This document shows, piece after piece, positions 1,946 through 38,493 of a DNA stretch of 39,125 nucleotides (position 1 is the first letter of the stretch; every line of letters starts with the position of its first letter). The DNA comes from a virus, in the IMG/VR virus record IMGVR_UViG_3300031566_000156. One strand, given 5' to 3'. The notes under the pieces are model-generated. The model saw nothing but the letters and a program-made list of their open reading frames with translations, searched no databases and was not told the DNA's origin. Position numbers and translations under genes: made by a program.

Positions 1946-2143
1946 TCATTTGCCAGCACTATTTAGTGTTTCTTCAAGCAATTCGTTATATAGGATGTTG
2001 CATTTATTCCTCTGTTCTTGCCAATCATTAAATAAATTCATAAGGTCGTAATTTTCAGTTTGTAAAATCATACCCATCAACTTGACTTCTAATTCATTTA
2101 GTTTTGATACTTGTGATTTGTGTTGTTCTTCTAATTTTGTCAT
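1946..2143 (-). CDS. Hypothetical protein (65 aa)
   Basis: ORF track; its start lies 16 nt downstream of boundary motif A1. Confidence 0.6.
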   Translation of the reverse strand: MTKLEEQHKSQVSKLNELEVKLMGMILQTENYDLMNLFNDWQEQRNKCNILYNELLEETLNSAGK

Positions 2144-2158
2144 AATATTTAATTATTA

Positions 2159-2179
2159 GTTTGGTATATACAGATGTTA
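2159..2179 (-). repeat. Boundary motif A, copy 1 (minus strand TAACATCTGTATATACCAAAC)
   Basis: Member of a 21-nt family with consensus TAACATCTGTATATACCCAAC. Sits between the stop of 2189-2518 and the ATG at 2143. Confidence 0.7.
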
Positions 2180-2188
2180 GCGTTAATG

Positions 2189-2518
2189 CTAAGTACGCTC
2201 TATTGGTCGCCATTCTACAATATGCGAAATAATACTATCATCTTTTTCGGCAAAATCACAGAATTTACTTCCGTCAATTATACCTTCATAAGTTCTAGCT
2301 ATATAAATATTTCCAAATTTATTTTTTGCTAAAACAAAATCACTTCTTTTCCCATCCCATTCGCCAGTTTCATAAGCCAATGGGCTTTCATCTTCTGTTT
2401 TTATCCATTCATTTGCAAAATTGAATCCTTCCCTAAAATGTGATACATAATCCCCAGAGAAATAATAATCATCATCTCTTTGATATACTTCTTTTTCTGC
2501 TTCTTTTACTGTTTTCAT
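2189..2518 (-). CDS. Hypothetical protein, DUF551-like C-terminus (109 aa)
   Basis: ORF track. The C-terminal ...SHIVEWRPIE resembles the W-x-P ending of DUF551 phage proteins; the similarity is weak and judged from memory. Confidence 0.55.
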   Translation of the reverse strand: MKTVKEAEKEVYQRDDDYYFSGDYVSHFREGFNFANEWIKTEDESPLAYETGEWDGKRSDFVLAKNKFGNIYIARTYEGIIDGSKFCDFAEKDDSIISHIVEWRPIERT

Positions 2519-2530
2519 TTTTTTTAATTA

Positions 2531-2779
2531 TTAGTTGGGTCGTTCTTTACTATTTTCATCCGCAAAATCCTCCATCATTGCAAGTAGCGTATCAATTTTA
2601 TTTAAGTCTGGCTCTTCCTTTTCAATCTCTTCTTTTGCGTTTAAATACAACATGTGCATATAACTTTTATGTCCTTTGAAGCCAAATACAGTACTTATCG
2701 TATGTTGCATTTCAAAAGCTGCCACGCTAATAGTAAAAAACTTACGTAGTGCATCAATTTTATTAAGTATATTATTCAT
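2531..2779 (-). CDS. Hypothetical protein (82 aa)
   Basis: ORF track. Preceded by the 15-nt box ACGGATTTGAAACAC (2794-2808), which also occurs at 26173-26187. Confidence 0.6.
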   Translation of the reverse strand: MNNILNKIDALRKFFTISVAAFEMQHTISTVFGFKGHKSYMHMLYLNAKEEIEKEEPDLNKIDTLLAMMEDFADENSKERPN

Positions 2780-2838
2780 AGTATTTAAGTTTTGTGTTTC
2801 AAATCCGTAAAATTACATGCCATACCAAAACAGTTATA

Positions 2839-3048
2839 TTAAATTGTGAAATCCTTAATAATTATTTCAATATTTAATGCTTTTGCAACTTTTTCTACAC
2901 TCTCAATTGATGCAGTACCTTTAAACACATTGTTAATTGTGCTTAATGATAGGCCTGCAACTTCTGCAAGTTCATATTTCTTTATCCACATGTCAGATAT
3001 TTCTATTTGATGGTTAATTGCTTTTAATAAATGTTCTTTTGTTTTCAT
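2839..3048 (-). CDS. XRE/Cro-like helix-turn-helix DNA-binding protein (69 aa)
   Basis: KYELAEVAGLSLSTINNVFKGTASIESVEKVAKAL has the HTH_3 pattern (helix-turn-helix followed by a short helix). Confidence 0.7.
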   Translation of the reverse strand: MKTKEHLLKAINHQIEISDMWIKKYELAEVAGLSLSTINNVFKGTASIESVEKVAKALNIEIIIKDFTI

Positions 3049-3061
3049 TTTTTAATTGTTA

Positions 3062-3082
3062 GTTGTGTATATACAGATGTTA
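3062..3082 (-). repeat. Boundary motif A, copy 2 (TAACATCTGTATATACACAAC)
   Basis: 20/21 match to the family consensus. Overlaps the 3' bracket arm of the 3090-3416 cassette. Confidence 0.7.
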
Positions 3083-3442
3083 TGCGCAATTAGAGCCACT
3101 TACTAGCAACGCCAATTATTCGAAACGTAAATTTAAGTATTTGTATAAATTCATTAATGTTAGTTATTTCATTCATATTTTCATAAATAGCATTAGCCAT
3201 AATTACCTCTTTCTCCGTTTCAAAAGCTAGGTTACTAATCATTTCAATAGTTGAATGATAATATTTAATCTCTCCTTTATCCCATTTTATTGATATATGA
3301 GGGTAATCATTTTTAAACGTGTCTGCAAAATGGCTTCTTACCATCATTCTCTCATTAAGGTTAAGACCTTTTTCTTCTAATAAATTCCATGCTTTGTCGT
3401 GAGTTTCTTGGTTCATAATTTTAAGAATAAAAGCGCATAACA
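3078..3442 (-). repeat. Inverted-repeat-bracketed gene cassette (arms TGTTATGCGC 3078-3087 / GCGCATAACA 3433-3442)
   Basis: Perfect 10-bp inverted repeat: one arm 2 nt after the stop, the other 17 nt before the ATG at 3416. Confidence 0.75.
3090..3416 (-). CDS. Hypothetical protein (108 aa; track starts at a TTG at 3443)
   Basis: The track start is a TTG inside the bracket arm. The ATG at 3416 (MNQETHDKAWNLLEEKG...) is more plausible. Confidence 0.6.
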   Translation of the reverse strand: MNQETHDKAWNLLEEKGLNLNERMMVRSHFADTFKNDYPHISIKWDKGEIKYYHSTIEMISNLAFETEKEVIMANAIYENMNEITNINEFIQILKFTFRIIGVASKWL

Positions 3443-3445
3443 ACA

Positions 3446-3549
3446 GCTATAAATAATAGCGGTTTTAGTGCCATACGCAAGGTTTGTAATATTAATTTAA
3501 TTCATCTCGTTTTGATAATTTGTGCTATTTATCCGCTACTATTCATAGC
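3446..3549 (-). promoter_or_regulatory. Long-stem RNA hairpin element R1 (17-bp stem, about 70-nt loop), paralog of 28170-28277 and 37940-38044
   Basis: Minus-strand arms GCUAUGAAUAGUAGCGG / CCGCUAUUAUUUAUAGC pair over 17 bp with two G-U pairs. On the plus strand those positions would be A-C mismatches. Confidence 0.55.
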
Positions 3550-3591
3550 CAAACGTTATACATAATCGTAATTTTTTTTAGTTCTTTAATA

Positions 3592-3792
3592 TTATACTGA
3601 ATAATAATCATCTGATTTTAAAAATTGTTTCCAATCATTCTCAGTGTTCATTTCTTCGCTATCAAATTCCTCTTTGCTCATTTCGATAGTTCTATATTTT
3701 GCAAATACTTTACCATTAAAATATTTTCTGATAGTAAAAGTTCTCTTACTTTGATTAGCTGCTACTTTGATTATTTCATTTAAAGTTCTCAT
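3592..3792 (-). CDS. Hypothetical protein (66 aa)
   Basis: ORF track. Confidence 0.6.
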   Translation of the reverse strand: MRTLNEIIKVAANQSKRTFTIRKYFNGKVFAKYRTIEMSKEEFDSEEMNTENDWKQFLKSDDYYSV

Positions 3793-3811
3793 AATTTCTA
3801 AGTTTTAAATT

Positions 3812-3973
3812 TTAAATTAAATTACCGATACACCAAATAATAACTGCTAAACTAATTATTATTACATCAGTAGTTAGCATTACTCTTGTAACGTTCCGTT
3901 TAAAACACAATCTAATTAGGCTTATTATTCCTAAAATGTAAATTGTCCATATTATTAATTCAATTATTCCCAT
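3812..3973 (-). CDS. Hypothetical small membrane protein (53 aa, two hydrophobic helices)
   Basis: Hand-translated: MGIIELIIWTIYILGIISLIRLCFKRNVTRVMLTTDVIIISLAVIIWCIGNLI. The start overlaps the upstream small ORF by 14 nt. Confidence 0.4.
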   Translation of the reverse strand: MGIIELIIWTIYILGIISLIRLCFKRNVTRVMLTTDVIIISLAVIIWCIGNLI

Positions 3974-4094
3974 GGCTATATTTATCTCTATTTTTATTTA
4001 TATTTTTAATTTGAATATCAGCATCTTTTATTAATTCAGTAGTTTTTTCTTGAGCTAATTCAAGTTTTTTAATTATTATTTCTAAGTGTCTCAT
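3960..4094 (-). CDS. Hypothetical small protein (44 aa)
   Basis: Hand-translated: MRHLEIIIKKLELAQEKTTELIKDADIQIKNINKNRDKYSHGNN. Lies downstream of a TATATTTA -7-like box (4123-4130). Confidence 0.35.
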   Translation of the reverse strand: MRHLEIIIKKLELAQEKTTELIKDADIQIKNINKNRDKYSHGNN

Positions 4095-4200
4095 TCGTAT
4101 CTTTTGATTGTTAATTATAGTGTAAATATATACATTATTTCTAACGTTTAAGTCATTATGGCTAGTTGTATTGTGTTAATAAGTGTTAAAAGGTTAGGGG

Positions 4201-4221
4201 GTTGGGTATATACAGATGTTA
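4201..4221 (-). repeat. Boundary motif A, copy 3 (TAACATCTGTATATACCCAAC), followed by TGTTAATAAGTGTTAAAA box (4174-4191)
   Basis: Exact match to the consensus. The TAA inside it is the stop codon of 4219-4461. Confidence 0.7.
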
Positions 4222-4461
4222 CGCACAAGCTTTCTTGAAGCATTGTAGCCATAAATTACACCACATTATTTGTATGTCAATACTTATGTGGTAATCGCTA
4301 TGTCCAGTATTTTTAAATACTCTTAACATTATCCCAAAATCATCCCACTCCCAAATTATGCAAGGTTTACAAAGCCAGTGCATAACACGCAATATAAAAT
4401 ATTTTTGACGTGGTGGTTTTTTGAATAATCTACTATTTTTATACTTTTCTGCTAAATTCAT
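4219..4461 (-). CDS. Hypothetical protein (80 aa)
   Basis: ORF track. Confidence 0.5.
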   Translation of the reverse strand: MNLAEKYKNSRLFKKPPRQKYFILRVMHWLCKPCIIWEWDDFGIMLRVFKNTGHSDYHISIDIQIMWCNLWLQCFKKACA

Positions 4462-4503
4462 AAGTTATACATTTTAATTAAAAACATTTCATATTGCCAT
4501 TCG

Positions 4504-4719
4504 TTATGCCTTATTTGCCAATCCACGCCTATGAAAATCATCCTGTATCAAAAATTCAGTTGTCAATATATCTCCATTGCTTATTTGTATCTGAAATTTA
4601 TTACAGTATTTTAATCTAATTAACTGTATTATTTTACCGCCCTTTCTTCCAAATCTATCAGTCCATTGGGGTACTATTTCACCTAATCTAAATCCGTAAA
4701 GCTTCTTTGTCCGTGTCAT
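4504..4719 (-). CDS. Hypothetical protein (71 aa), first gene after the late terminators
   Basis: ORF track. Lies downstream of the -7-like box at 4749-4756. Confidence 0.55.
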   Translation of the reverse strand: MTRTKKLYGFRLGEIVPQWTDRFGRKGGKIIQLIRLKYCNKFQIQISNGDILTTEFLIQDDFHRRGLANKA

Positions 4720-4748
4720 TATTCAAGTTTTATACCATTATTGTACTG

Positions 4749-4888
4749 TAAAGATATACATTATTTATTAACTCTTTCGCATATAGAATGAATTATTTTA
4801 TATGATATTTATCATGTTTAGAATTAAATATAATGGGTAATTGTATTATTAATTTAATTGGTTGGATTGTAGACATGATGTTTGTCAT
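4749..4888 (-). promoter_or_regulatory. Early promoter region with two operator-like palindromes
   Basis: Contains -7-like TATCTTTA (4749-4756), ATGATATTTATCAT (4802-4815) and ATGATGTTTGTCAT (4875-4888); the two palindromes are 73 bp apart. Confidence 0.6.
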
Positions 4889-4904
4889 GTTTTTGATTAA
4901 TAAT

Positions 4905-4933
4905 ATAAAAAAAACCTGTACTATGAATACAGG
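4905..4933 (-). terminator. Rho-independent terminator at the end of the late region
   Basis: The minus strand reads CCUGUA-UUCAUAG-UACAGG followed by U8 (plus-strand A-run 4907-4914). Confidence 0.8.
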
Positions 4934-4940
4934 CTTGTTA

Positions 4941-4963
4941 TAAAGCGGGAAACCACCCCCGCC
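4941..4963 (-). terminator. Second (upstream) terminator-like hairpin
   Basis: GCGGG-GGUGGUUU-CCCGC followed by UUUAU, 34 nt after the stop at 4997. Confidence 0.55.
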
Positions 4964-4996
4964 AAAATCAACTATGAAAACTATGAAAAATTTAAT

Positions 4997-5488
4997 CTAA
5001 AATATCATTCTTATTATGCTTTTTATGTCTACGATGTTAGATAATGTTCCTAAACCTAACAATATTAAACCAACCATCCATTTATATTTTTTTACTACCC
5101 GGATAAAGTCGGTATCTTCCTCTAACTTAGTTACTCGCCCATTTGTTTTTGTTACCTGAATTAATACTGATTCAAGTTTAGCAACAATTACTTCAAAGCC
5201 GCTATTCATTTGCACAATTACGCTGTCTAATCGCTGGTTAAATGAGTCATGTTCTAGTTCATCTCGTGTCTTTTCTTCCATAATAATTAATTGACTTTTC
5301 AATGATAATAATTCATTTATCAAAGAATTTATTTTTTTTATAATTATTTCTCTTTTTCTTCGTAAAAATGCCCTGTAAAAATACTCAAAAAAACTTAATC
5401 CTAAAAATATTCCTGCTAATATTTCGATTTTGAAAATCCATAAATACTTCCCAATAAAACTGCTATAATAAAAGACATCTGGAACCAT
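4997..5488 (-). CDS. Membrane-anchored coiled-coil protein (163 aa), lysis-associated candidate
   Basis: Hydrophobic N-terminal (ILAGIFLGLSFF) and C-terminal (WMVGLILLGLGTL) segments flank a coiled coil. It is the last late gene and overlaps the upstream gene by 73 nt. Confidence 0.6.
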   Translation of the reverse strand: MVPDVFYYSSFIGKYLWIFKIEILAGIFLGLSFFEYFYRAFLRRKREIIIKKINSLINELLSLKSQLIIMEEKTRDELEHDSFNQRLDSVIVQMNSGFEVIVAKLESVLIQVTKTNGRVTKLEEDTDFIRVVKKYKWMVGLILLGLGTLSNIVDIKSIIRMIF

Positions 5489-5808
5489 GCGCTACCACTA
5501 ATAAATAAAACACTGTTATTAATTTTTGCCATGTAGCAGATATTCTCATAAACCTCAATTAAATTCCAAATAATCAAACCAAATAATATCAACCTCGATG
5601 CAATTTTTTCTTTTTTTGTTAAAATGAATATAAATAAAGATGTTATTAATGTTGATGCACCTATCGCATTTGTTAAATATCCAACAGGTGCATTAAAGTT
5701 GACAACCTCATTAAATGGAACCTCAGCAAATAACATTAAAAAATATTCGCAAAAAACTGTAGTCGAAAATAATGTTAAAGCTATCCAATTAATTCTTAGA
5801 TAATTCAT
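5416..5808 (-). CDS. Multi-pass membrane protein (130 aa), holin-like candidate
   Basis: About four hydrophobic helices, positioned at the end of the late operon. No sequence family recognised. Confidence 0.6.
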   Translation of the reverse strand: MNYLRINWIALTLFSTTVFCEYFLMLFAEVPFNEVVNFNAPVGYLTNAIGASTLITSLFIFILTKKEKIASRLILFGLIIWNLIEVYENICYMAKINNSVLFISGSAWFQMSFIIAVLLGSIYGFSKSKY

Positions 5809-5983
5809 TTTTTAATTCTTTTATCTCATTCTCAAGAATTGCAATTTGTTTAATTAAATAAGTTACTATCTTATTATCTCGAATTTCCTTGCTTTCATTA
5901 ATATCAAATGTTTCACTTAATTCTAATGTTAGCTCTGTTGTTATTTTGGCCACGTTTGGTGGCAATTGCTCTACTCTTGGCAT
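5789..5983 (-). CDS. Hypothetical protein (64 aa)
   Basis: ORF track. Confidence 0.5.
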   Translation of the reverse strand: MPRVEQLPPNVAKITTELTLELSETFDINESKEIRDNKIVTYLIKQIAILENEIKELKNELSKN

Positions 5984-6036
5984 AATTCTATTTATTAATG
6001 ATGTTAGTGTGTAATTTGTTACCTATTGTAATTTAA

Positions 6037-6411
6037 TTATTTTTTTACTATTAAAGGTAGTTCATCTATATTAATATACTTATTTTTTTTCTTTGGCTTC
6101 CAAATTGCACGAATAATAATATTAGTTGCTATTCCAGACAAAGCAGTAAAAGCAAAATCTGAATAAGAAAAGTATCCAGTATTAAAAGTATCATAAAACT
6201 CCTTGCTTGCAGCTCCTGTAATTGCTATTAGTGAGGGTGCAATTGGGTTCATCTCTTTGTATGAATATTGGCCAATCGTATACATCCCACTTGAAAGAAC
6301 TATACCAGCTCCAACATGATAGTATTTATCTTGCTTTATTTGAGCGTTTAAAGTAAAAGAAAATAGAAATAATATAGTTATTAGTTTTTTCATAATTATG
6401 TTATTGTCCAA
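6037..6411 (-). CDS. Secreted/membrane protein with N-terminal signal peptide (124 aa)
   Basis: MKKLITILFLFSFTLNAQ is a typical Bacteroidota-style signal sequence. Confidence 0.6.
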   Translation of the reverse strand: MDNNIIMKKLITILFLFSFTLNAQIKQDKYYHVGAGIVLSSGMYTIGQYSYKEMNPIAPSLIAITGAASKEFYDTFNTGYFSYSDFAFTALSGIATNIIIRAIWKPKKKNKYINIDELPLIVKK

Positions 6412-7640
6412 CCATTTGTAATTAGGTTATTATAAGCCGTGTCACTGGCACTTGTCCTTGCGGTGTTTCCTGTTATTATTTCTAAAGTTCCATTTATCCA
6501 ACCTGTCCCGTCTAAATTTATAAGTTGATTATCGTGTTCAGTTGCAGAAAGAGAATTGTTTTTAAAATCAATTTCAGCAGGTGTAGATGTTGCGTAAACT
6601 GATAAATCTATATTAGGTAAAGCGCATCCATCCATGTCAAAATTATTTAAACTTCCATTCCCCACAGATGCAAGTGTTATCCCTGTCATTAATGAATTAA
6701 ACCTCCAAATAACATTTGTGCCTGTAGGTACATTTGAAGCATTTACTGTGCCTGTGATATTACAGCTATATGCGTAAAATGTTGAAGTCAAGGTGTTACC
6801 TGAGCTTGCAAAGGTTATTCCTGTTAATAAAGAGTTAGAATGAGAATCGAATACTACACCAATAGGCACGTTAGATAAATTTAAAATTCCTGTTAAATTA
6901 CAGCTATAAACTTTAAAATCACTTACTAATGAGTTCCCTGAGCTTGCAAAGGTTATTCCTGTTAATAAAGTGTTAGAATACACTTGGAACAATCCTCCTA
7001 TCGGTACATTTGATAAATCTAAAACACCAGTTAAATTATTAGTATATAACCTAAATGCAGTAACTTTTACATTTCCTGAGCTTGCAAATGTAAGAGTTGT
7101 TAATGAAGAATTAGACCTAATTTCTACGCTTCCTCCTATTGGTACATTTGATAGATTTAATGATGTAATTGCCGTAAATCTTATAATTAAATTATTTACT
7201 ATACCATTACCAGAAGTTGCAAATATAATTTCTGTTAGCCCTGCGTTTGAATATGGTCTAAATATTCCACTAATAGGGGCTAATGACATATCTAAAACTC
7301 CTATATATAAATTGGTATTTATGTTAAATTCAGTTAATAATCCTGTTTTTAGTCCTGATATAAACGTAATCCTTGAATTATCAGCTACAAATTTAGTAAT
7401 ACCTAGTAAATCCCCTGTAATCTCAGCAATATAAGTTCCTGCTAAAGTGTAAGTATGCGTTAACTCAATACCACTTACAAAATTTTCTGTAGCACTTCCA
7501 TCCTTCCAATCAATTGTAAGTGTACCACTGGCAAAAGTTAAGTTAATGCCAGCAGTAAACCCAGCAGTTGGCGTCATTGTGATTTTAATAGCATCTGCTG
7601 ATACTTTTTGAGATAATAAACCAATAGGATAAGTAATCAT
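6396..7640 (-). CDS. Leucine-rich-repeat protein (414 aa), receptor-binding / tail-fibre candidate
   Basis: Five to six units of about 46 aa (LTGxLxLSNVPIGGxFxVYSNxLLTGITFASSGNxxxxxFxxYSCN), located directly after the large fibre-like gene. Confidence 0.75.
   Translation of the reverse strand: MITYPIGLLSQKVSADAIKITMTPTAGFTAGINLTFASGTLTIDWKDGSATENFVSGIELTHTYTLAGTYIAEITGDLLGITKFVADNSRITFISGLKTGLLTEFNINTNLYIGVLDMSLAPISGIFRPYSNAGLTEIIFATSGNGIVNNLIIRFTAITSLNLSNVPIGGSVEIRSNSSLTTLTFASSGNVKVTAFRLYTNNLTGVLDLSNVPIGGLFQVYSNTLLTGITFASSGNSLVSDFKVYSCNLTGILNLSNVPIGVVFDSHSNSLLTGITFASSGNTLTSTFYAYSCNITGTVNASNVPTGTNVIWRFNSLMTGITLASVGNGSLNNFDMDGCALPNIDLSVYATSTPAEIDFKNNSLSATEHDNQLINLDGTGWINGTLEIITGNTARTSASDTAYNNLITNGWTIT
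6799..6979. repeat. Near-identical DNA repeats inside the LRR gene (period 138 nt)
   Basis: CCTGAGCTTGCAAAGGTTATTCCTGTTAATAAAG occurs at 6799-6832 and 6937-6970 (34/34 identical, then 8/9). A third, diverged copy lies near 7075. Confidence 0.85.
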
Positions 7641-7643
7641 AAT

Positions 7644-8186
7644 TTAAAATATTACCTGTGTCCATCCACTTGATACTTCTGCCTGAAATTGCGCAATAGT
7701 ATCTATATCTACATTCCTATCTACAACAGTAGGTGTAGCCCCACCAAATGAAGAAAAAATGATTAGCATTTCAGAACCTTTTAAATATTTAGAAACTGAG
7801 TTGCCTATTGGATTTGATAAGAAATAAATTTCATCATTCGTATCTTTTTTCCATACTTCTGCTGAAACATCAAACCAGTTTTTGAAAGCTTTTACTTCCA
7901 CTGATGCAGTTTCATCTAAAGTAGTTCTATTTGGCAAACCATCAGGCAGCAAATCGCCTAATATAGCAACATCCGCTTTAATAGCTAACAAATATTCTTC
8001 CACTTCACCACCAGCAGTTAATATCTGGTTGATTTGTCCTAATGTCAACAATAAATCGCCTTCTACAATAGTATTGCCATTGCTTGCTGTTCTGGTTAAA
8101 TCCGAACGCCCGACTAATAAATCATAATAAAATGATTCTAATGTTCCGCCTGTTTGGATAGAAGTTGTTGGTACTGTAAATTTCAT
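7644..8186 (-). CDS. Virion-associated hypothetical protein (180 aa)
   Basis: ORF track. Lies between the two fibre-like genes. Confidence 0.65.
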   Translation of the reverse strand: MKFTVPTTSIQTGGTLESFYYDLLVGRSDLTRTASNGNTIVEGDLLLTLGQINQILTAGGEVEEYLLAIKADVAILGDLLPDGLPNRTTLDETASVEVKAFKNWFDVSAEVWKKDTNDEIYFLSNPIGNSVSKYLKGSEMLIIFSSFGGATPTVVDRNVDIDTIAQFQAEVSSGWTQVIF

Positions 8187-8197
8187 GTTTTTTATTT

Positions 8198-10387
8198 TTA
8201 AGGTGCTATTGTGTTAATTGTATAATGTACATCAGAGTTGGCATTTACAAATACTGTTATTGTGTTGTATGCTGTATTAGTATTATCTAGTGCAGGTGAA
8301 TTATCATAGGCATCGCCAAAAGTTGCACCTATTGTTATAGTCGGTGGAGTTGCAGTGTTAATGTATAAATCTATTACATAAGTTCCTGGCAATAAATTTG
8401 ATAATCCTATTGTAGTATCAGCAGTAACAGCCATGTACTGATTATTCCCGTTATTACCATCAAATGTAGTTGATGCTGCAAATGTTTGTATATGGTATCC
8501 ACCGTGAGCCTGCCCATTAACTACTAAGTTTCCCGTTAATGTTAATAAGGTTTTTGTTATTGTATTTGCTAAATCTAATTCTATTTGCTCATTACCGGCA
8601 GGCAGTAAAATAGCCTTTAGTAAATTTGATGTAACAGCTAACTTGTCAGTTAAATACGAATTGGTTGTATCGGTTGCTGATATTCTTACCTTATCATCTA
8701 ATCCACCGCCACCAGAAGCACCACCACCACCAGTTCCACCTATTAATCTTGTTCTATTATCAAGTGTGCTTATTTCTGTCCATGTAGCACCACCCCCACC
8801 AGTTCGAGCAACTACAATTGTATATAATTTAAATAATACACCTTCGGTAATTATGTCATTTGGTGCAACATCATAATTAGATGCATCTGTTAATGCTTCG
8901 GCTGCAGAAGAATAATAACCTAATGGTCTAGTAACTATAAGCTTATCACTTGAAGCTAAAGCCCCACCGGACCCGCTGTTTTGCATTCCATAAACAGGAA
9001 GCCTATAATAAGCACCATTAACCGCTAAAGAGACTCCTAAAGCGGTTTGTATAATACTAGCTAAATCTGTAACAGTTTCATAAGTTGCTGTGTTTGTTGT
9101 ATCGTTATAAATCGAATATTTAGTACCATCCTGTAAATCAAATGAACTCTTATGTGCTTGCATGGCAATACCCGCTGTTGTGGCTATTGTTATGCTTGGT
9201 GTTGAATTTACTACCACTGTGGCATCTATACCACTTGTATAAGTTGTGCCAAGCTTATCTCTTGAGATATCAGCCATCCAGCGATTAAACCCGTCATCCA
9301 CTCCATTATCAGGTGCATCATTGTATCTTCTCCATTTGTATACACCCTCTGTTAATGTTCTGGTTACATTAAATAAAGATGCTTTCCCTATTGGCGCTAA
9401 CTCATCAGAAGTAGCAAGGGTTGAAACCTTTAATTCTGGGGTTGTTCCGTTTAACCAAACATAAATATAATTCTCAAACAAAGTGGAAGCATCAACACCC
9501 GCAACTAAAGCAGCAAAAGCGCCATTATTTGGCCCTCCTCCGGATGTTGTGTTAAGTAAGTACCTTGTTCCATCTAAAATAAAAGCTAAATCCTTTAATG
9601 GGGCGTTTTGATTAGTGACTTCTATGTAAACAGTTCCACCTGATTCGTAAAATTCTACTGCTGGTGTCTCAACTACAACACCATTTAAAGTTCCTTCAAT
9701 GTTTACAGTTGTATCTGAGCCGCTAAATGCTAAAGTGTCAACACCTATTACTCCCAAAGTAGCATGTGAAATCAAACAAACCCCAATTCTAACCGGATAA
9801 TTTGGTGCTTTTGGTCTAACATTTGTCCACCCTCCTAAAACTAAAGGATTTCCATAAACGATATCGCCAGGTGTTAAGGCGATTGTGTTTAAATTTCGTA
9901 CAGCTCCATATCTTACAGCGTATCCAGGGTTTCCGTTTATAGTTTCGATGGTCATTAACCCAAAACCTCTAATAGAACTATCTATATTTGAGCTATCTAA
10001 TAATTCAACCTGAAGACTTGCACCAACAGCCCCAGTGACCGAAACAGCGACACCATCTAATAATGTTGCTCCTGTATCATTGACTAATCGTGCTCTTAGT
10101 TCTTCGCCTAATTGTAATGAAATACCTTCAATGTCATTATAAGCTGACCATGTATTTTCTGTTGAATCATAAAATAATCTAGCTATCTTATAACTTGGTG
10201 GTGTTGCTTGCGGTGTGAAATCAAGCCAGTCAAATACACTTGCAATTGCTTGTACTAATGTTTTGAAATATGACCATAACATATTTTTACCACCAGATAC
10301 TGAAGGTTGCCCAAATGCAATTCTATCATTATCATCCGGTAGGGTTGGTGTTGTTATTAGCGTCTGATTAAATAATTCTTTTGGCAT
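8198..10387 (-). CDS. Large tail fibre/spike-like structural protein (729 aa)
   Basis: Called on size, a Gly-rich hinge (GGTGGGGASGGGG), Thr/Asn/Gly-rich composition and position in the late operon. Confidence 0.6.
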   Translation of the reverse strand: MPKELFNQTLITTPTLPDDNDRIAFGQPSVSGGKNMLWSYFKTLVQAIASVFDWLDFTPQATPPSYKIARLFYDSTENTWSAYNDIEGISLQLGEELRARLVNDTGATLLDGVAVSVTGAVGASLQVELLDSSNIDSSIRGFGLMTIETINGNPGYAVRYGAVRNLNTIALTPGDIVYGNPLVLGGWTNVRPKAPNYPVRIGVCLISHATLGVIGVDTLAFSGSDTTVNIEGTLNGVVVETPAVEFYESGGTVYIEVTNQNAPLKDLAFILDGTRYLLNTTSGGGPNNGAFAALVAGVDASTLFENYIYVWLNGTTPELKVSTLATSDELAPIGKASLFNVTRTLTEGVYKWRRYNDAPDNGVDDGFNRWMADISRDKLGTTYTSGIDATVVVNSTPSITIATTAGIAMQAHKSSFDLQDGTKYSIYNDTTNTATYETVTDLASIIQTALGVSLAVNGAYYRLPVYGMQNSGSGGALASSDKLIVTRPLGYYSSAAEALTDASNYDVAPNDIITEGVLFKLYTIVVARTGGGGATWTEISTLDNRTRLIGGTGGGGASGGGGLDDKVRISATDTTNSYLTDKLAVTSNLLKAILLPAGNEQIELDLANTITKTLLTLTGNLVVNGQAHGGYHIQTFAASTTFDGNNGNNQYMAVTADTTIGLSNLLPGTYVIDLYINTATPPTITIGATFGDAYDNSPALDNTNTAYNTITVFVNANSDVHYTINTIAP

Positions 10388-16004: not shown

Positions 16005-16059
16005 CAAAGTTATAATTAAAATCTATATATTCAAAATATCTTATAAATAAAATCTATAT
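16005..16059 (-). promoter_or_regulatory. Late promoter (head block)
   Basis: -7 TAACTTTG (16005-16012), 19-nt spacer, -33 TTTG (16032-16035). ATATAGAT boxes lie at 16021-16028 and 16052-16059. The ATG at 15999 is only 5 nt after the -7 box. Confidence 0.7.
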
Positions 16060-23074: not shown

Positions 23075-23129
23075 CAAAGTTATAACTTTAATCTATATAT
23101 TTCAAACATTATATAGATTTTATCTATAT
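23075..23129 (-). promoter_or_regulatory. Late promoter (tail block)
   Basis: -7 TAACTTTG (23075-23082), 20-nt spacer, -33 TTTG (23103-23106). ATATAGAT-type boxes lie at 23091-23098, 23111-23118 (inverted) and 23122-23129. The first about 40 nt nearly match 15997-16036. Confidence 0.7.
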
Positions 23130-26482: not shown

Positions 26483-26692
26483 TATTTTTTTTAATTATTT
26501 AATATAGTTGTGGATATTTGGCATTTATGTTAATATTCCTAAAAATTCATTTAATAAATCTATCCGCAAATTTTACCATAAATATATTTTTCCCCCCCTC
26601 TTTACTTTTTTAAAAAGCATTTAAAAAGTTTCGTGCGTTTTTTATCATTTTTCGCTGTCATTTTATTTTTTTTGAAAACTAGAAAATGAACA

Positions 26693-27224
26693 CCCTATAA
26701 ATAGGGGCTTACAGAGGGGGCTAAATCAAAAATGTTCAGACTTTTTTGTCAAAGTTTAGGTTTTCAGAAATCGAAAATTTTTAAAAACTTTTTTTTCGTT
26801 TTCAAGGTTTCTAACTTTTCGAAAAAAGGTTTATACTTTTTCCTCGGTAAAAAGGTTTTGCGTTTTTGAAAATTTGCTTTATACTTTTTTGTCAAGAAAA
26901 AACTTTCCAACTTTTGAAAAAATACTTTTAACCTTGCGAGCAAAAATTTACTTTCTAAATTTTAAAAATTAGGTTTCAACTTTTTGGTTAAAATCTCAAA
27001 ACCTTTTTCTTAAAAAAATACTTTAAACTTTTTAGGCTAAAACTCAAAACCTAAATTTCGAAAAAAAGGTTTGTAATTTTTGTTCAACTTTCAGAAACCT
27101 AACTTTCGAAAAAAAACTTTCACACTTTTTACTTCCAGATAAAAACCTTTTTGAAAGAAAAAAAGTTTTGCATTTTTTGAAAAGTTAAAATCTCAAACCC
27201 TTATTTATAGGGGCTTACAGAGGG
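26693..27224. repeat. Iteron-like A/T-tract repeat array bracketed by direct repeats
   Basis: The flanks CCCTATAAATAGGGGCTTACAGAGGG (26693-26718) and CCCTTATTTATAGGGGCTTACAGAGGG (27198-27224) share 18 identical nt. Between them lie at least 12 degenerate GAAAAAA-NNTTT-NNN-ACTTTTT units plus two sharper sub-families. Confidence 0.85.
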
Positions 27225-27433
27225 TCACTTTTTAACTTTTTGCAAGTTTGTGCGATTTTTGCCGAAAAATCCTGAAACTTTTTATTTTTTTGAAAAAACT
27301 CAAAGAACGTTTTAATAATATATTTTTCGCTTAAAAAAGCTCAACCAATTCTTTCTTTCATCACAAATATACGAAATAAAATCTAACGCTTTCTTATTGT
27401 GTGATGCTAATAGTGGTTTAATGTATACCATAA

Positions 27434-27943: not shown

Positions 27944-28167
27944 TGTTATAGGGCATTTAAAGCCATTCTAACATCTTCCCAATATTTATGAGTTGATTTA
28001 TTTTGGTCAATAAACCAAGTTGGGTTTGAGTTCAATATTTCTTCTACTGCTATCAATGCGCACGTTTTTGCTGTTTTGCTATCAACATTACCATGTGTGT
28101 AGTACATTTTATTTGCTAATTCTACTGCTTTATCCTGTGGTGTCATAATTTAAAACGCCCTATAACA
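27944..28167 (-). repeat. Inverted-repeat-bracketed gene cassette (TGTTATAGGGC 27944-27954 / GCCCTATAACA 28157-28167)
   Basis: Perfect 11-bp inverted repeat. The 3' arm contains the stop codon, and the 5' arm lies 11 nt before the ATG at 28146. Confidence 0.75.
27946..28146 (-). CDS. Hypothetical protein (66 aa)
   Basis: ORF track. Confidence 0.6.
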   Translation of the reverse strand: MTPQDKAVELANKMYYTHGNVDSKTAKTCALIAVEEILNSNPTWFIDQNKSTHKYWEDVRMALNAL

Positions 28168-28169
28168 AT

Positions 28170-28277
28170 GTATATTATTCAGTGGCGTTATAGTGCTTAG
28201 TTTTAACCACTGTGCAGTCTTGCTAGTTTGTCGGTATGCGAAAAGTCCTGCAATCAATCGCCACCGAAATCATATAC
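28170..28277 (-). promoter_or_regulatory. Long-stem RNA hairpin element R2 (paralog of R1/R5)
   Basis: Arms GUAUAUGAUUUCGGUGGCG / CGCCACUGAAUAAUAUAC (about 17 pairs, one bulge, one mismatch). Followed by the 24-nt block 28280-28303, which is identical to 38047-38070. Confidence 0.5.
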
Positions 28278-28299
28278 TAAACGGTAGGCACAATAAAAA

Positions 28300-28485
28300 T
28301 TACTGCTTTCGTGCCATCATTCGGACGCATTCTTCTTTCATCATTTTTAGCCCACTTGCTTTCGTAACATCAGCAGAATAATCTTCACCAGACTTGTATT
28401 TTCGGATTATCTCTTTTTCAAGTTCTTTCAGTTCTTTATCGTACTCTAAAAACTGTTCGTGTATCATTTTAATTAATTCGCTCAT
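28300..28485 (-). CDS. Hypothetical protein (61 aa)
   Basis: ORF track. Confidence 0.55.
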   Translation of the reverse strand: MSELIKMIHEQFLEYDKELKELEKEIIRKYKSGEDYSADVTKASGLKMMKEECVRMMARKQ

Positions 28486-30123: not shown

Positions 30124-30144
30124 GTTGGGTATATACATGTGTTA
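30124..30144 (-). repeat. Boundary motif A, copy 4 (TAACACATGTATATACCCAAC)
   Basis: 19/21 match to the consensus. The TAA inside it is the stop of 30142-30399. Confidence 0.65.
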
Positions 30145-30420
30145 TAAAGAATTGATGTTATCAATATATTCGTCAATTACCTTTATAACGTTTCCAAGTG
30201 CTTGAAATTTGCCAAATTCAAACATCTGCATAACTCTAATTTTAGGGTTGTCTTTTTCTTTTTCATACTTTTTATATTTTTCAGAATGTTCTTTCTTTTT
30301 TTGACATACATCATTTCTTAATCTCAATAGATATATTACACTATCTGGCGGCTCATGGTTTAATTCTAAAACTTCTGCCATTGCTAAATTACCATCCATA
30401 ATATAAACTCTTTATAACAC
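30139..30420 (-). repeat. Inverted-repeat-bracketed gene cassette (GTGTTATAAAGA 30139-30150 / TCTTTATAACAC 30409-30420)
   Basis: Perfect 12-bp inverted repeat. The 5' arm lies 9 nt before the ATG at 30399, and the 3' arm includes the last codons and the stop. Confidence 0.75.
30142..30399 (-). CDS. Hypothetical protein (85 aa)
   Basis: ORF track. Confidence 0.6.
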   Translation of the reverse strand: MDGNLAMAEVLELNHEPPDSVIYLLRLRNDVCQKKKEHSEKYKKYEKEKDNPKIRVMQMFEFGKFQALGNVIKVIDEYIDNINSL

Positions 30421-30494
30421 GGTGTAAAATGACCATGCTGTTAACAGCCGTTTTAATTTGAATCATTTTCGCTTGCACGGCATTTACACAAGCG

Positions 30495-30773
30495 TTAAAT
30501 AATCTTACTCATCTGGCCATCATCTACAAATATTCTGATAGGTGAAACATAAACATTTAATCCAATAATTGCATCATCATTATTAAATGCTATATTAGTT
30601 GTAACTTGTTCAGGATTTTTGTTTTCTTGAACTATTCCTATCCATTTATGATTTCCAGAATCAAAGCTACCATTATCCATTACAAAACCTGCTTTCCTAA
30701 ATGCTTTATCCATTAAATCATATAGAGTTGTTTCCTGTAACTTCCCATCTATATCTTTTATATATATTTCCAT
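30495..30773 (-). CDS. Hypothetical protein (92 aa)
   Basis: ORF track. Followed by a 95-nt GC-richer multi-stem spacer (30400-30494) that includes the palindrome GCTGTTAACAGC. Confidence 0.6.
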   Translation of the reverse strand: MEIYIKDIDGKLQETTLYDLMDKAFRKAGFVMDNGSFDSGNHKWIGIVQENKNPEQVTTNIAFNNDDAIIGLNVYVSPIRIFVDDGQMSKII

Positions 30774-32088: not shown

Positions 32089-32109
32089 GTTGGGGATATA
32101 CAGATGTTA
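32089..32109 (-). repeat. Boundary motif A, copy 6 (TAACATCTGTATATCCCCAAC)
   Basis: 20/21 match to the consensus, immediately 3' of the bracket arm. Confidence 0.7.
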
Positions 32110-32398
32110 GCGGTTATTGGTGAGATATTAAACCACCTGCGTTATTTGGGTCTAAATACAAGCGTTCACCTTTTTTAAAATCTGAGGTGTTAACATCCGT
32201 AATAACATGCTCAATTTGTGGTTTCATTCTTAATAACCTCCTAATCCATCCACATTTTAATTTGCATCTACCTACCTGTAGTACGAAGTCATTTTCATCT
32301 TTTATATAGCAAAGTTCGCCCTCTTTAAATGCTATTCCTGTATTGTTTTTAACCTTAATTAACTTTTCCATATCTATAAGTAATAACAACCGCTAACA
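32105..32398 (-). repeat. Inverted-repeat-bracketed gene cassette (TGTTAGCGGTT 32105-32115 / AACCGCTAACA 32388-32398)
   Basis: Perfect 11-bp inverted repeat. A third copy, GTTAGCGGT (32482-32490), can pair with the 5' arm instead. Confidence 0.75.
32114..32371 (-). CDS. Hypothetical protein (85 aa; track starts at a TTG at 32389)
   Basis: The track start is a TTG inside the bracket arm. The ATG at 32371 (MEKLIKVKNN...) is preferred. Confidence 0.6.
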   Translation of the reverse strand: MEKLIKVKNNTGIAFKEGELCYIKDENDFVLQVGRCKLKCGWIRRLLRMKPQIEHVITDVNTSDFKKGERLYLDPNNAGGLISHQ

Positions 32399-32494
32399 AG
32401 CGGTCATAGTTAATAAAGCCAATTAAGTTTTGTTCGTTGTAGGTTGCAGTGTGGGTGGCTTTACTAACCATACCGCCAGCCGTTAGCGGTAATG

Positions 32495-36669: not shown

Positions 36670-37193
36670 ATAGGATAATGTATTTGTTCGTAATTGTAAA
36701 CTTTGTCAGATAAGGCCTTTATTTCATCTCCATAATCATTCCCATAATTTATCTCCATATCACAGAGATAGGCTAATCTTTTTAAGGACTTTTTGTACTC
36801 AACAAATTTTAAAATATTTATAAAAATTGATTCTACCTGAAATCTTGTTTGTTTGTCATTATCAATTAATTCTTTTATTCGTCTCCATCCGTAATAAACT
36901 GTTGAACGGTCATACTTTCTATCTCCTTTGCTAATAAATTCACCGATTTTTTTCTGGCTTAATTTGGTTAATTCGAGACAAAAATAAGATATGTACTTTC
37001 GAGCTAAAACAATTTCTTTCCTTCTTGACATTGATTTTAGCAAATCGATATGTATGTTTAATGCTGCCAGGACAAAATTTTCAATTTCATCATATTTTAA
37101 AATTGGGATATATCTATCTAAATTCATAGTTTTTTTTATTTTAAAAAATATACGTTGATATGGTGTTGTGTGTATATAAGTGTTGTAGTGCAT
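36666..37193 (-). CDS. DnaA-domain-IV-like (Bac_DnaA_C-type HTH) DNA-binding protein (175 aa)
   Basis: RRKEIVLARKYISYFCLELTKLSQKKIGEFI...DRSTVYYGWRRIKELIDND parallels the DnaA C-terminal pattern R..I..ARQIAMYL...T..S...IG..FG.RDHSTV.HA..KI. An alternative start is the ATG at 37127. Confidence 0.6.
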   Translation of the reverse strand: MHYNTYIHTTPYQRIFFKIKKTMNLDRYIPILKYDEIENFVLAALNIHIDLLKSMSRRKEIVLARKYISYFCLELTKLSQKKIGEFISKGDRKYDRSTVYYGWRRIKELIDNDKQTRFQVESIFINILKFVEYKKSLKRLAYLCDMEINYGNDYGDEIKALSDKVYNYEQIHYPI

Positions 37194-37493
37194 TTAGAAT
37201 CCAATCATCGTTGAATCTACTGGTGGGTAGTACCACATCCATTTAGTTTCGTTCTCTGGCTCGTCATAGTCAACTAAGGTGTCAGTGTGGAAACGCCACT
37301 GCATACTTTCAAAGCAAAAATAAGCCACCCCTTGCACGTTATTTTCGTCAATTATGCAAACATCTTCACTAAATGTAATATCGTCTTTACTTTGTTTAGG
37401 CTTATTTTTTTCGGGGTCAAATAAACGCACTACAACATTATGTAAAGTGCATGGCTGTTCGGTTTTTGAATTTTTTGTACTCATATCAATCAT
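37194..37493 (-). CDS. Hypothetical protein (99 aa)
   Basis: ORF track. Confidence 0.6.
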   Translation of the reverse strand: MIDMSTKNSKTEQPCTLHNVVVRLFDPEKNKPKQSKDDITFSEDVCIIDENNVQGVAYFCFESMQWRFHTDTLVDYDEPENETKWMWYYPPVDSTMIGF

Positions 37494-37552
37494 TATTTAA
37501 GTTTTAAAACTATGTAGCTTTTATTAGGCAGCCACGACACCATACATTTAAC

Positions 37553-37935
37553 GTTAGCCGTAATTAAAAGAAACATTCCACCAATGAATCAACGGCAGGT
37601 TTTAATACTTTAAAATATTCAGCTTTTTCGGGTCTTATATCGCCTTCTTCAATTCCATACCAAAACAATATTGGCAAAGGTATTTCTAAGTAATTTGCAA
37701 TTTTTTGTAATACTTCGGTGCTTGGTTGTTTTTGGTCATTCTCAATTTGGCTCAAATAGGTTTGAGTAATGCCAATATTTTGAGCAAATAATTCTTGAAT
37801 TTGTCGAGCTTTATTTACTCTAAGTCTTTTAATTGATTGTCCTAATTTCATATAATTATCGTTTTAAATTTAACCAAAGGTAATATATATTTCTAATAAT
37901 ACAAATTTAATTGATAGATATTAACTACGGCTAAC
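37553..37935 (-). repeat. Inverted-repeat-bracketed gene cassette (GTTAGCCGTA 37553-37562 / TACGGCTAAC 37926-37935)
   Basis: Perfect 10-bp inverted repeat. The 3' arm lies 1 nt after the stop, and the 5' arm lies 75 nt before the ATG at 37851. Confidence 0.7.
37564..37851 (-). CDS. XRE/Cro-CI-type HTH transcriptional regulator (95 aa)
   Basis: QELFAQNIGITQTYLSQIENDQKQPSTEVLQKIANYL is a canonical HTH_3 pattern. Confidence 0.85.
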   Translation of the reverse strand: MKLGQSIKRLRVNKARQIQELFAQNIGITQTYLSQIENDQKQPSTEVLQKIANYLEIPLPILFWYGIEEGDIRPEKAEYFKVLKPAVDSLVECFF

Positions 37936-37939
37936 AATG

Positions 37940-38044
37940 TATAAAAATAATAGCCGTTTCGGTGGTAATTTTAAAGTATCGTGCAACGTTGTAAAGTCCA
38001 GTAGGTTGATAGTTTTTCGCTCGCAATCGGCTACTATTCTTATA
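37940..38044 (-). promoter_or_regulatory. Long-stem RNA hairpin element R5 (paralog of R1/R2)
   Basis: Arms UAUAAGAAUAGUAGCCG / CGGCUAUUAUUUUUAUA form 17 bp, with G-U pairs at the same two positions as in R1. Confidence 0.55.
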
Positions 38045-38085
38045 CCAACGGTAGGCACAATAAAAATTACTTGCCTTTCAGTATC

Positions 38086-38493
38086 TCATTTTGCTCTACC
38101 ACATTCCAAAATAGAAGTCATCAAATCAAACTTCCATGTACTTTTCATGAAATGATTAATATTATCATACTTTTTATGAACTCTTTTCATATTATCAACA
38201 CCTGTCCGTTTTACCATATAATAATATTCTGCACTTTTTAAATAAACAGGTTCTAATTTATCTAAAATTTTAAAAAGTATTTCCTTGTACTCATTGTCGA
38301 TAATATACCCATTTTCATTGCATCTAATGAATATTTTTGTTATCTCGTATAAATTGCCTTGCTGCACGTCTCTAAATTCGTCAGTGGTCATGTAATTGCG
38401 CTTTATCTTATCACAAAAATTTGCTTTATGGTCAAATTGTTCATGTTGCTCTGTTTCTCTTTTATCGAGAAAAAATTTATTTGATGCTCCCAT
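38086..38493 (-). CDS. Hypothetical protein (135 aa)
   Basis: ORF track; 2-nt gap to the upstream gene. Confidence 0.65.
   Translation of the reverse strand: MGASNKFFLDKRETEQHEQFDHKANFCDKIKRNYMTTDEFRDVQQGNLYEITKIFIRCNENGYIIDNEYKEILFKILDKLEPVYLKSAEYYYMVKRTGVDNMKRVHKKYDNINHFMKSTWKFDLMTSILECGRAK

Follow-up and report, generated by a model that had tools for sequence, protein, structure and literature searches.

Introduction

Long-range processing stems bracket the 16S and 23S rRNAs, RNase III sites lie between the early cistrons of phage T7, and tRNAs punctuate mitochondrial transcripts; in these systems a gene-flanking helix or an inter-cistron structure marks RNA cuts and protects the new ends. 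In the pdif (XerC/D) modules of Acinetobacter plasmids and in Bacteroides invertons, inverted short sites flank gene modules; the sequence bound by protein is fixed, and the recombinase is known. Integron cassettes carry attC sites (R''-RYYYAAC ... GTTRRRY-R') with conserved AAC/GTT ends, variable inner bases and an imperfect hairpin between genes; the structural model of attC has R and L boxes, extrahelical bases and a length of 57-141 bp. In T4-type phages, motif-bounded cassettes of small open reading frames (ORFs) have been described, bordered by the promoter-early stem-loop (PeSL), a direct repeat of promoter and terminator hairpin (PMC2839356, PMC4122927). Here we describe a cassette in the viral DNA IMGVR_UViG_3300031566_000156 from IMG/VR (39,125 nt; the whole stretch is called the window), in which the gene of an XRE-family helix-turn-helix (HTH) regulator follows a hairpin, H, and is enclosed by a gene-spanning helix, B. 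An earlier note on this DNA had read four complementary segments around the gene as the 1-2-3-4 arrangement of an attenuator. We found two independent, selectively maintained helices, repeated around many unrelated genes, and whole H+B units are what close relatives gain, lose and swap.

Results

Two Conserved Helices at the XRE Locus

Coordinates throughout follow the minus-strand reading of the window, the strand that carries every window gene. The four segments were found where they had been reported: TAGCCG at 38033-38028 (segment 1), CGGCTA at 37956-37951 (segment 2), TAGCCG at 37933-37928 (segment 3) and CGGCTA at 37560-37555 (segment 4), the last one 3′ of the XRE stop codon TAA (37566-37564). 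The TAGCCG/CGGCTA hexamer occurs eight times on both strands of the window against 5.15 ± 2.0 expected, showing no overall excess. However, four of the eight copies lie within 480 nt and alternate in orientation, indicating that the clustering is non-random although the overall count is not. Segments 1 and 2 form the base of a hairpin, as the earlier note had said, and its stem measured 17-18 bp (38045-38028 with 37956-37939) with two G.U pairs included. The 5′ arm of H, holding segment 1, thus occupies 38028..38045 and the 3′ arm, holding segment 2, 37939..37956 of the minus strand. Segments 3 and 4 do bracket the HTH gene, but the helix is 16 bp long rather than 10 bp: 37936-37921 pairs with 37567-37552, two wobble pairs among them. 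An inverted-repeat search reported this helix as 15 nt, 93% complementary and 353 nt apart. The 5′ arm of B, T|GTTAGCCGTAGTTAA (37921..37936, minus strand), holds segment 3. The 3′ arm, TTAATTACGGCTAAC|G (37552..37567, minus strand), holds segment 4; it shares bases with the stop codon and runs up to the unit boundary YAAC|G.

RNA folding of 38060-37540 was carried out, as had been proposed for a check. The minimum free energy structure held both 1:2, as an 18-bp stem, and 3:4 (z = -1.8). The partition function gave probabilities of 0.98 for 1:2 and 1.0 for 3:4. Segments 2 and 3 could indeed pair over 7 bp (ACGGCTA/TAGCCGT), with a probability of 0.0 in the same calculation and a penalty of 11.3 kcal/mol when the pairing was forced. 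Pairings 1:2 and 3:4 are real, independent helices.

Helix B Is Under Selection for Pairing

The XRE regulator gene (37564..37851, minus strand; 95 aa) is the cargo of the cassette and matched Pfam HTH_3 (E = 5e-13). For its protein 54 homologs were found. A single-protein scan of viral contigs gave only one close relative, and alignment-based scans were needed. From viral, metagenome and genome collections 89 loci with XRE relatives were gathered and three more were added later (loci are labelled L with a number). At about 19 distinct XRE loci the helix was found at the same two places, with scores clearly apart from the background. In the alignment of 19 XRE cassettes, 96.7% of the cells of the 16-bp helix were paired, against 85.5 ± 1.1 in shuffles (none of 500 reached the observed value), and 26-48% were paired when the partners were slid as a control. 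Double-sided, compensatory changes were seen in 9 of the 16 pairs, and one G.U pair was invariant in all 19 cassettes. The variants of the core change as pairs (AGCCG/CGGCT, ATGCG/CGCAT, AGGTTT/AAACCT, ATGCGA/TCGCAT and GTATATGTTT/AAATATATAC), and near-perfect pairing is maintained across XRE proteins that are only 50% identical. At the single positions of brackets that depart from Watson-Crick pairing, the sense strand gave G.U nine times versus A.C twice. Selection for pairing on the gene-spanning 3:4 bracket is strong.

Several XRE loci differ in their arms. In L003, L004, L027 and L028 the XRE genes are 91% identical to that of the window and lie in a tightly packed operon, without either arm, an own promoter or the hairpin. 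L017 has the 5′ arm and has lost the 3′ arm, and in L025 the promoter region is replaced and one base is inserted in the 3′ arm.

Hairpin H Belongs to a Class of Junction Hairpins

Homologs of the 1:2 hairpin were present upstream of the XRE cassettes in L026, L036, L041 and L035, and its paralogs in the window are the hairpin of the unit R2 and that at 3558-3438. Across these 7 homologous and paralogous hairpins the stem covaries, with 8 of the 10 pairs of the inner stem compensatory. The stem variants were TAGCCG/CGGCTA, TAAGGG/CCCTTA, TAGCGG/CCGCTA and GGTGGCG/CGCCAC; the equivalent of segment 2 was CCCTTA in L026, L036 and L041, CCGCTA at 3558-3438 and CGCCAC in R2; each of these is the complement of the 5′ arm in the same hairpin. 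Hairpin H is kept by compensatory evolution. A 45-codon ORF with a GTG start overlaps it, and the hairpin sequence is without codon-level conservation. A tRNA/tmRNA scan of the window found none.

The 1:2 hairpin is one member of a class with a common plan: YAAC, 4-9 unpaired nt, a stem of 16-22 bp, an A-rich loop of 20-110 nt, 1-3 nt and GTTR. The order YAAC, hairpin, GTTR was kept at every junction examined, and the junctions measured 48-130 nt. The hairpin consensus is lineage-specific, and stems of the hemulen type (named from phage hemulen6-1) contain a conserved C.A mismatch and a 1-nt bulge. All 7 junction hairpins of the window were 3-8 kcal/mol more stable as the sense strand. Over all hairpins the sense strand was also favored (mean -1.9 kcal/mol, p = 0.009), but this difference is lineage-dependent and so not decisive. 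A second type of junction, with no obvious hairpin, was noticed at 32105, 31037, 30140, 3078 and 37181 (minus strand), where YAAC is followed by A(T/C)CTGTATATAC.CAAC and the next ATG comes 10-30 nt on.

The left end of the XRE unit is marked by a box, TTTTTATTGTGCCTACCGTT (38047..38066, minus strand), ending in YACC|G, a variant of the YAAC|G boundary, at 38050|38049. There are exactly two copies in the window, at 38047-38066 and 28280-28299, each followed by an H hairpin. The identity extends to about 24 nt (GTAATTTTTATTGTGCCTACCGTT; 38047-38071 and 28280-28304), and the boxes stand after two unrelated core genes and before the hairpins of the XRE unit (R5) and of R2. A complementary partner of the box (ATTGTGCCTACC) was sought upstream of R5 and R2, and none was found except both boxes themselves. 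The two-copy box could be a fixed 'entry' junction for cassettes.

The Same Architecture Surrounds Many Unrelated Genes

Positions 38049-37553 of the minus strand are one unit of a repeated modular architecture. A unit consists, in order, of YAAC|, a 4-9 nt linker, H, a 1-3 nt linker, the 5′ arm T|GTTR-N6-GT, the cargo gene and the 3′ arm AT-N6′-YAAC|G, which abuts or overlaps the stop codon. The middle segment (3′ arm of H, 1-3 nt, 5′ arm of B) is contiguous and complementary to both ends of the unit, so that H and B can stack and the YAAC| boundaries become adjacent. Brackets were searched with a symmetric inverted-repeat scan and then with a signature scan, on the minus strand of the window and in all loci. 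Within the signature N6 varies freely; it is cassette-specific and complementary within each bracket. The signature scan required G opposite T at position 11, so this pair is an observed result only for the 19 XRE cassettes and for the symmetric scan.

Flavobacterium-type phages, both related and unrelated, showed the same design around 54 or more unrelated small genes. Unique brackets numbered 47 in sense versus 3 in antisense orientation, these being AT-rich hits, and 54 when further genomes were added; L210-L212 gave no antisense bracket. Neighboring brackets were always co-oriented with the XRE cassette. The bracket signature is polar with respect to the coding strand. A T preceded the 5′ arm in 48/54 brackets and a G followed YAAC in 37/54, and the contiguous helix had a median of 14 bp. 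Measured to the end of YAAC, the stop codon ended 11-13 nt upstream in 32 of 47 brackets; in another 9 it was the TAA of TAAC and ended 1 nt upstream. The first in-frame ATG lay 6-43 nt 3′ of the 5′ arm in about 20 brackets, while in 17 of 47 units it lay 51-147 nt 5′ of the arm, inside the loop of the preceding hairpin, and the 5′ arm is thus within the ORF. 'Empty' brackets with arms 11-80 nt apart were not found on either strand, the shortest spacing being 95 nt, and hence no ancestral local hairpin was found. A scan of IMG/VR with the 14-mer TTATTGTGCCTACC returned at least 119 matches, all of them chance and many coding for the helicase-like peptide LIVPT.

In the window, brackets lie at 37935/37553, 37436/37182, 32397/32106, 31201/31038, 30418/30141, 28166/27945 and 3441/3079. 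The unit next to the XRE cassette (37182..37551, minus strand) has a hairpin at 37551-37437, whose loop holds the ATG at 37493, the 5′ arm GTTGTAGTGCGTTT at 37436-37423 and the 3′ arm AAATGCACTACAAC at 37195-37182. The earlier note had claimed that the R2 cassette follows the same logic. The same two helices do occur there (28286-27945), making R2 a second copy of the design, although the attenuator logic was unsupported. This paralogous unit (27945..28286, minus strand) comprises the H hairpin at 28277-28170, the 5′ arm GTTATAGGGCGTTT at 28166-28153, a 66-aa ORF and the 3′ arm AAATGCCCTATAAC at 27958-27945. The unit at 30141..30497 (minus strand) has a hairpin at 30497-30419 and the bracket GTTATAAAGAGT.../...TCTTTATAAC around the ORF 30142..30399; that at 32106..32485 (minus strand) has a hairpin at 32485-32398 and the bracket GTTAGCGGTTGT.../...AACCGCTAAC. 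An R5-like hairpin (3558-3442, stem TAGCGG/CCGCTA) opens the unit at 3079..3558 (minus strand), whose bracket GTTATGCGCT.../...TGCGCATAAC surrounds the ORF 3090..3443. In a sub-family of brackets, a 5′ arm ...CTGG stands opposite a 3′ arm CTTG..., giving a conserved T.T beside the G.T at positions 10-11 (many loci, for example L014:1543, L032:191, L047:1627 and window 4385-4203).

The architecture was most extended in hemulen6-1, where 14 consecutive brackets span the leftward accessory arm gp005-gp022 and none occurs elsewhere in the genome. Their cargo includes five methyltransferases, an XRE gene and small genes of unknown function, and every member of the array is intact. Only four genes, XRE, a methyltransferase, NinG and TerL, are shared by hemulen6-1 and the window, so the bracket architecture crosses unrelated phage lineages. 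The bracketed array of hemulen6-1 (L090) at 2037-9809, like the same arm in L213-L217, five further Lillamyvirus genomes, contains as many as five DNA methyltransferase cassettes, whose presence varies by isolate.

Units Are Gained, Lost and Swapped at YAAC|G

Whole H+B units are the pieces that close relatives exchange. Compared with hemulen6-1, phage sniff9-1 carries one extra unit of 439 bp (hairpin, 5′ arm, 95-aa ORF, 3′ arm) flanked by the direct repeat ATAACG. In the left arms of six Lillamyvirus genomes, 18 of 33 homology breakpoints fell no more than 8 nt from a YAAC end (about 3% expected) and none at GTTR; several further breakpoints lay at TAACG motifs that the scan had not called. 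A replacement was seen in the close relative L036. Its flanks match window 30962-30485 and 30146-29890 at 96-98% identity, but three other cassettes, one of them XRE, stand between TAAC|G and YAAC| instead of the 30418/30141 cassette. Identical arms of 14-17 nt carry unrelated ORFs in L210:13307-13529 and in R2 of the window (28166-27945), and identical arms with unrelated ORFs also occur inside one genome, that of sniff9-1 (L002), at 1798-2117 and 3289-3529. Over longer distances hairpins and brackets assort independently. The XRE cassette was seen in at least six different neighborhoods, and its homology to other phages (BLAST) stopped at the arms in every context, at 37936-37946 and at 37550-37553.

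The XRE Promoter Lies Inside the Bracket

A Bacteroidetes-type promoter, TTTG-N19-TACCTTTG (37875..37905, minus strand), was assigned to the XRE gene from its sequence alone. It lies inside the bracket and is conserved in nearly all XRE homolog loci. Only four full-consensus sites of this type occur in the window, all on the minus strand, with this one among them. Segment 3 is upstream of the promoter, and segments 1-3 all precede it. We therefore infer that a transcript from the gene's own promoter would contain segment 4 alone. The promoter spacer (37883-37901) is a near-palindrome, AGAAATAtaTATTAC, conserved at most XRE homolog loci, and is a better candidate for the XRE operator than the TAGCCG segments. 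Among the homologs, the recognition helix ITQTYLSQIE hardly varies.

Two near-identical full-consensus promoters of the same type, TTTGAA(A)TATATAGATT..TTATAACTTTG, were noticed where structural genes leave gaps, at 16005-16035 and at 23075-23106 (minus strand), and are possible late promoters. Elsewhere in the window, about 1 kb around 26600-27300 is without ORFs of at least 70 aa and contains a cluster of long imperfect inverted repeats (for example 26729-26767 with 27043-27081; 26693-26710 with 27195-27212). This stretch may be an origin or a control region.

Discussion

A Proposed Sense-Strand RNA Reading of the Helices

The reading we favor, with belief and doubt about evenly balanced, is that sense-strand RNA helices close each accessory cistron and define the exchange module. 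The helices would act in the sense-strand polycistronic early mRNA, in which each accessory cistron would be folded as a closed, self-contained domain, with its 5′ end starting with hairpin H and its 3′ end locked in helix B. The terminating ribosome, whose footprint reaches about 11-13 nt beyond the stop codon, would unzip B. The outcome could be processing, stability and context-independent expression of genes that are constantly moved between genomes. Viable recombinants would be only those retaining both arms together, and exchange points would therefore lie in the conserved YAAC|G linker. As for the folding strand, RNA is our choice, although the call is close to even. It is preferred because pairing is near-perfect in every array member and across the 50%-identical XRE proteins, which points to use in each infection; because the exceptions on the sense strand are G.U rather than A.C; because the window hairpins are stabler in the sense orientation; and because the stop-codon spacing would let a terminating ribosome cover the 3′ arm.

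Several observations weigh against this reading. In the 17 units with the 5′ arm inside the ORF, the helices would be melted by every ribosome, and cleavage there would destroy the message. The promoter of the XRE gene lies inside its bracket, so only read-through transcripts could form helix B of this cassette. Brackets occur in arrays of accessory, mobile genes and not around all early genes, a distribution as compatible with a device for mobility as with one for expression. Identical arms carry unrelated genes, whereas pure co-evolution of arm and gene in cis predicts otherwise. Moreover, hemulen-type junction hairpins show no gain of stability as the sense strand, and their conserved C.A mismatch would be a wobble pair on the antisense strand.

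Alternative Explanations

A single-stranded DNA (ssDNA) recombination device, with a logic like that of integron attC sites or IS200-605 elements, is the main rival, a possible but doubtful explanation. The junction (...N6′-YAAC|, linker, hairpin, linker, GTTR-N6...) would be a site recognised by its structure, circularisation of the cassette would account for the complementarity across the gene, and a host enzyme or an unrecognised phage enzyme would cut and join at YAAC|G. Much of the architecture agrees with such a device: the topology is integron-like, in that arrays run in one orientation, the triplets AAC/GTT are conserved, each cassette has its own complementarity across the gene, and the imperfect hairpins share conserved bulges and mismatches; a unit was inserted or deleted precisely between ATAACG repeats, and breakpoints cluster at YAAC; whole expression units, XRE promoter included, lie within the bracket; unrelated genes sit within identical arms; the hairpin consensus is lineage-specific, as in the attC families of chromosomal integrons; the architecture is restricted to the accessory arm; and H and B bring both cut sites together. 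However, Pfam and PHROGs searches of the scanned window ORFs, some small ORFs being left out, and the 70 annotated genes of hemulen6-1 gave no tyrosine, serine or HUH recombinase, a host enzyme being possible. What was recognised instead were DnaB, a replication initiator, an Erf/Rad52-like protein, NinG, methyltransferases and an HNH endonuclease. The crossover at YAAC|G makes the upstream hairpin travel with the gene, the opposite of integrons, and the H and B modules assort independently over longer times. The near-perfect pairing and the intact state of all array members imply selection in every generation and not only at rare mobilisations, and the tight spacing of the stop codon against the 3′ arm also speaks against this device. 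If it did operate, Bacteroidota phages would carry an undescribed integrase-less cassette system, in which every accessory gene (methyltransferases, regulators, small genes of unknown function) sits in a unit defined by its structure only, the junction hairpin and the gene-spanning helix with GTTR/YAAC ends, and in which the units are cut out and rejoined at YAAC|G via a single-stranded intermediate, a 'phage integron' with a new or borrowed enzyme; we put this forward tentatively. The equally novel alternative is that each cistron of a phage mRNA is individually closed by its own long-range helix and opened by the terminating ribosome. It is improbable, on the other hand, that the arms are functionless footprints of cassette formation or exchange, for example by template switching at hairpins or joining by a single-strand annealing protein (SSAP) and NinG, the junction motifs being microhomology as with T4-type PeSLs. 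In favor of this, a NinG/Rap junction endonuclease is present in both phage lineages and an Erf/Rad52-like annealing protein in the window, breakpoints fall in the most conserved junction motif, and the PeSLs offer a precedent (PMC2839356, PMC4122927). Footprints would decay, whereas compensatory double changes, G.U intermediates and the high pairing in diverged orthologous cassettes indicate continuing selection for pairing.

The attenuator proposed in the earlier note, in which 2:3 would compete with 1:2 plus 3:4 and control the XRE gene, was not borne out, and we regard it as very improbable. All three pairings can be drawn in the window, and R2 and the unit at 32397 also permit a 2:3 stem of 6-9 bp. 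Nevertheless, 2:3 is neither conserved nor predicted. Over 56 junctions the best 2:3 helix averaged 5.93 bp versus 5.84 ± 0.17 with swapped partners (p about 0.35), and at least 7 bp was reached in 10 of the 56. The expectation that homologs keep all four segments complementary failed as well, the 2:3 stem being absent in the closest homologs: L026, L036 and L041 have CCCTTA at segment 2 with TAGCCG or TAGCCA at segment 3, while their segments 3 and 4 are the same as those of the window or nearly so (L026 and L041 retain TAGCCG). Being unconserved and at the level of chance, 2:3 makes the hexamer common to both helices a coincidence of this phage. The thermodynamic cost of 2:3 (about 11 kcal/mol) points the same way, and 3:4 is no terminator, since its arms enclose a promoter and a whole gene and segment 4 is followed by GUUAAAUGUAUGG rather than a U-tract. 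Furthermore, segments 1-3 lie outside the gene's own predicted leader, the same bracket surrounds dozens of unrelated genes, and no Rfam match was obtained at the gathering threshold in the whole window or at E ≤ 1 in 37100-38300. Scarcely more probable is the proposal that the XRE protein uses segments 3 and 4, or 2 and 3, as DNA operators, in autoregulation or looping, or that these segments are inverted repeats of an invertible segment. The XRE promoter does follow shortly downstream of segment 3, and both promoter and gene lie between the repeats. As operators, however, they would have to explain the same type of bracket at about 50 unrelated genes and a core that varies while the recognition helix hardly changes, and the conserved palindromic promoter spacer is a better candidate. 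For inversion, no inverted orientation was seen in about 30 contexts and no invertase was found, and the G/T asymmetry is strand-specific, which suits neither operators nor inversion.

Comparison With Described Systems

The locus does not behave as an attenuator, an operator pair or an inverton in the features that define these; it agrees with integrons in structure and departs from them in enzyme and crossover. As in integrons, each cassette begins with bases complementary to its own 3′ inverse core, conservation lies in structure rather than in sequence, the hairpins are imperfect with bulged bases, and arrays have one orientation with one small accessory gene per unit, whose stop codon is often inside ...TAAC. 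Unlike in integrons, no integrase (tyrosine recombinase) or attI was found here, the arms are 12-16 bp and not 7 bp, and the crossover is at YAAC|G with a traveling upstream hairpin, while in integrons it is at G|TT of R' and the downstream hairpin belongs to the gene. In addition, hairpin and bracket assort separately here, the genomes are those of virulent-type Bacteroidota phages, and pairing is strongly selected within arrays. With PeSLs the units have in common that intergenic stem-loop motifs border small accessory ORFs and that indels and replacements between close relatives end there. PeSLs, however, are without cassette-specific complementary arms that span the gene. In the units described here the junctions are free of the promoter consensus, the XRE gene's own promoter excepted; none of the four promoter sites of the window falls in a junction hairpin, and the hairpins are without U-tracts. 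The rRNA, T7 and mitochondrial processing structures are comparable as gene-flanking helices or inter-cistron structures; the brackets differ from them in enclosing single protein-coding cistrons, in their GUUR/YAAC ends and in a fixed G.U. The likeness to trp-type attenuators is limited to four alternating complementary segments in this one sequence, with 2:3 unconserved and 3:4 spanning 353 nt with promoter and gene and lacking a U-tract; neither a conserved leader peptide nor an element sensing a ligand was detected. In contrast to pdif modules and invertons, only complementarity and 4-nt ends are conserved, and no inversion was seen.

Literature searches on repeats and cassettes of Flavobacterium phages, integron-like phage arrays and intergenic hairpins found no description of this arrangement, and the paper on the Lillamyvirus isolates makes no mention of repeats, hairpins or cassettes. 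The cassette architecture is widespread, sharply defined and apparently undescribed.

Implications

The cassettes hold the genes that differ between otherwise near-identical phages, DNA methyltransferases among them, and in the study that isolated these phages, plating efficiency on different hosts was linked to a difference in methyltransferase (PMC7077304). On the coding strand, the signature T|GTTR-N6-GT ... AT-N6′-YAAC|G delimits the exchangeable unit to the nucleotide, in lineages that share almost no genes. Either reading is directly testable, because isolates and hosts already exist. If the helices act in RNA, they would represent a new way to organise polycistronic messages in bacteria without Shine-Dalgarno-driven initiation. 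If they act in DNA, they would represent a new route, guided by structure, by which viruses exchange genes, and would offer a fresh angle on the origin of integron-like cassettes.

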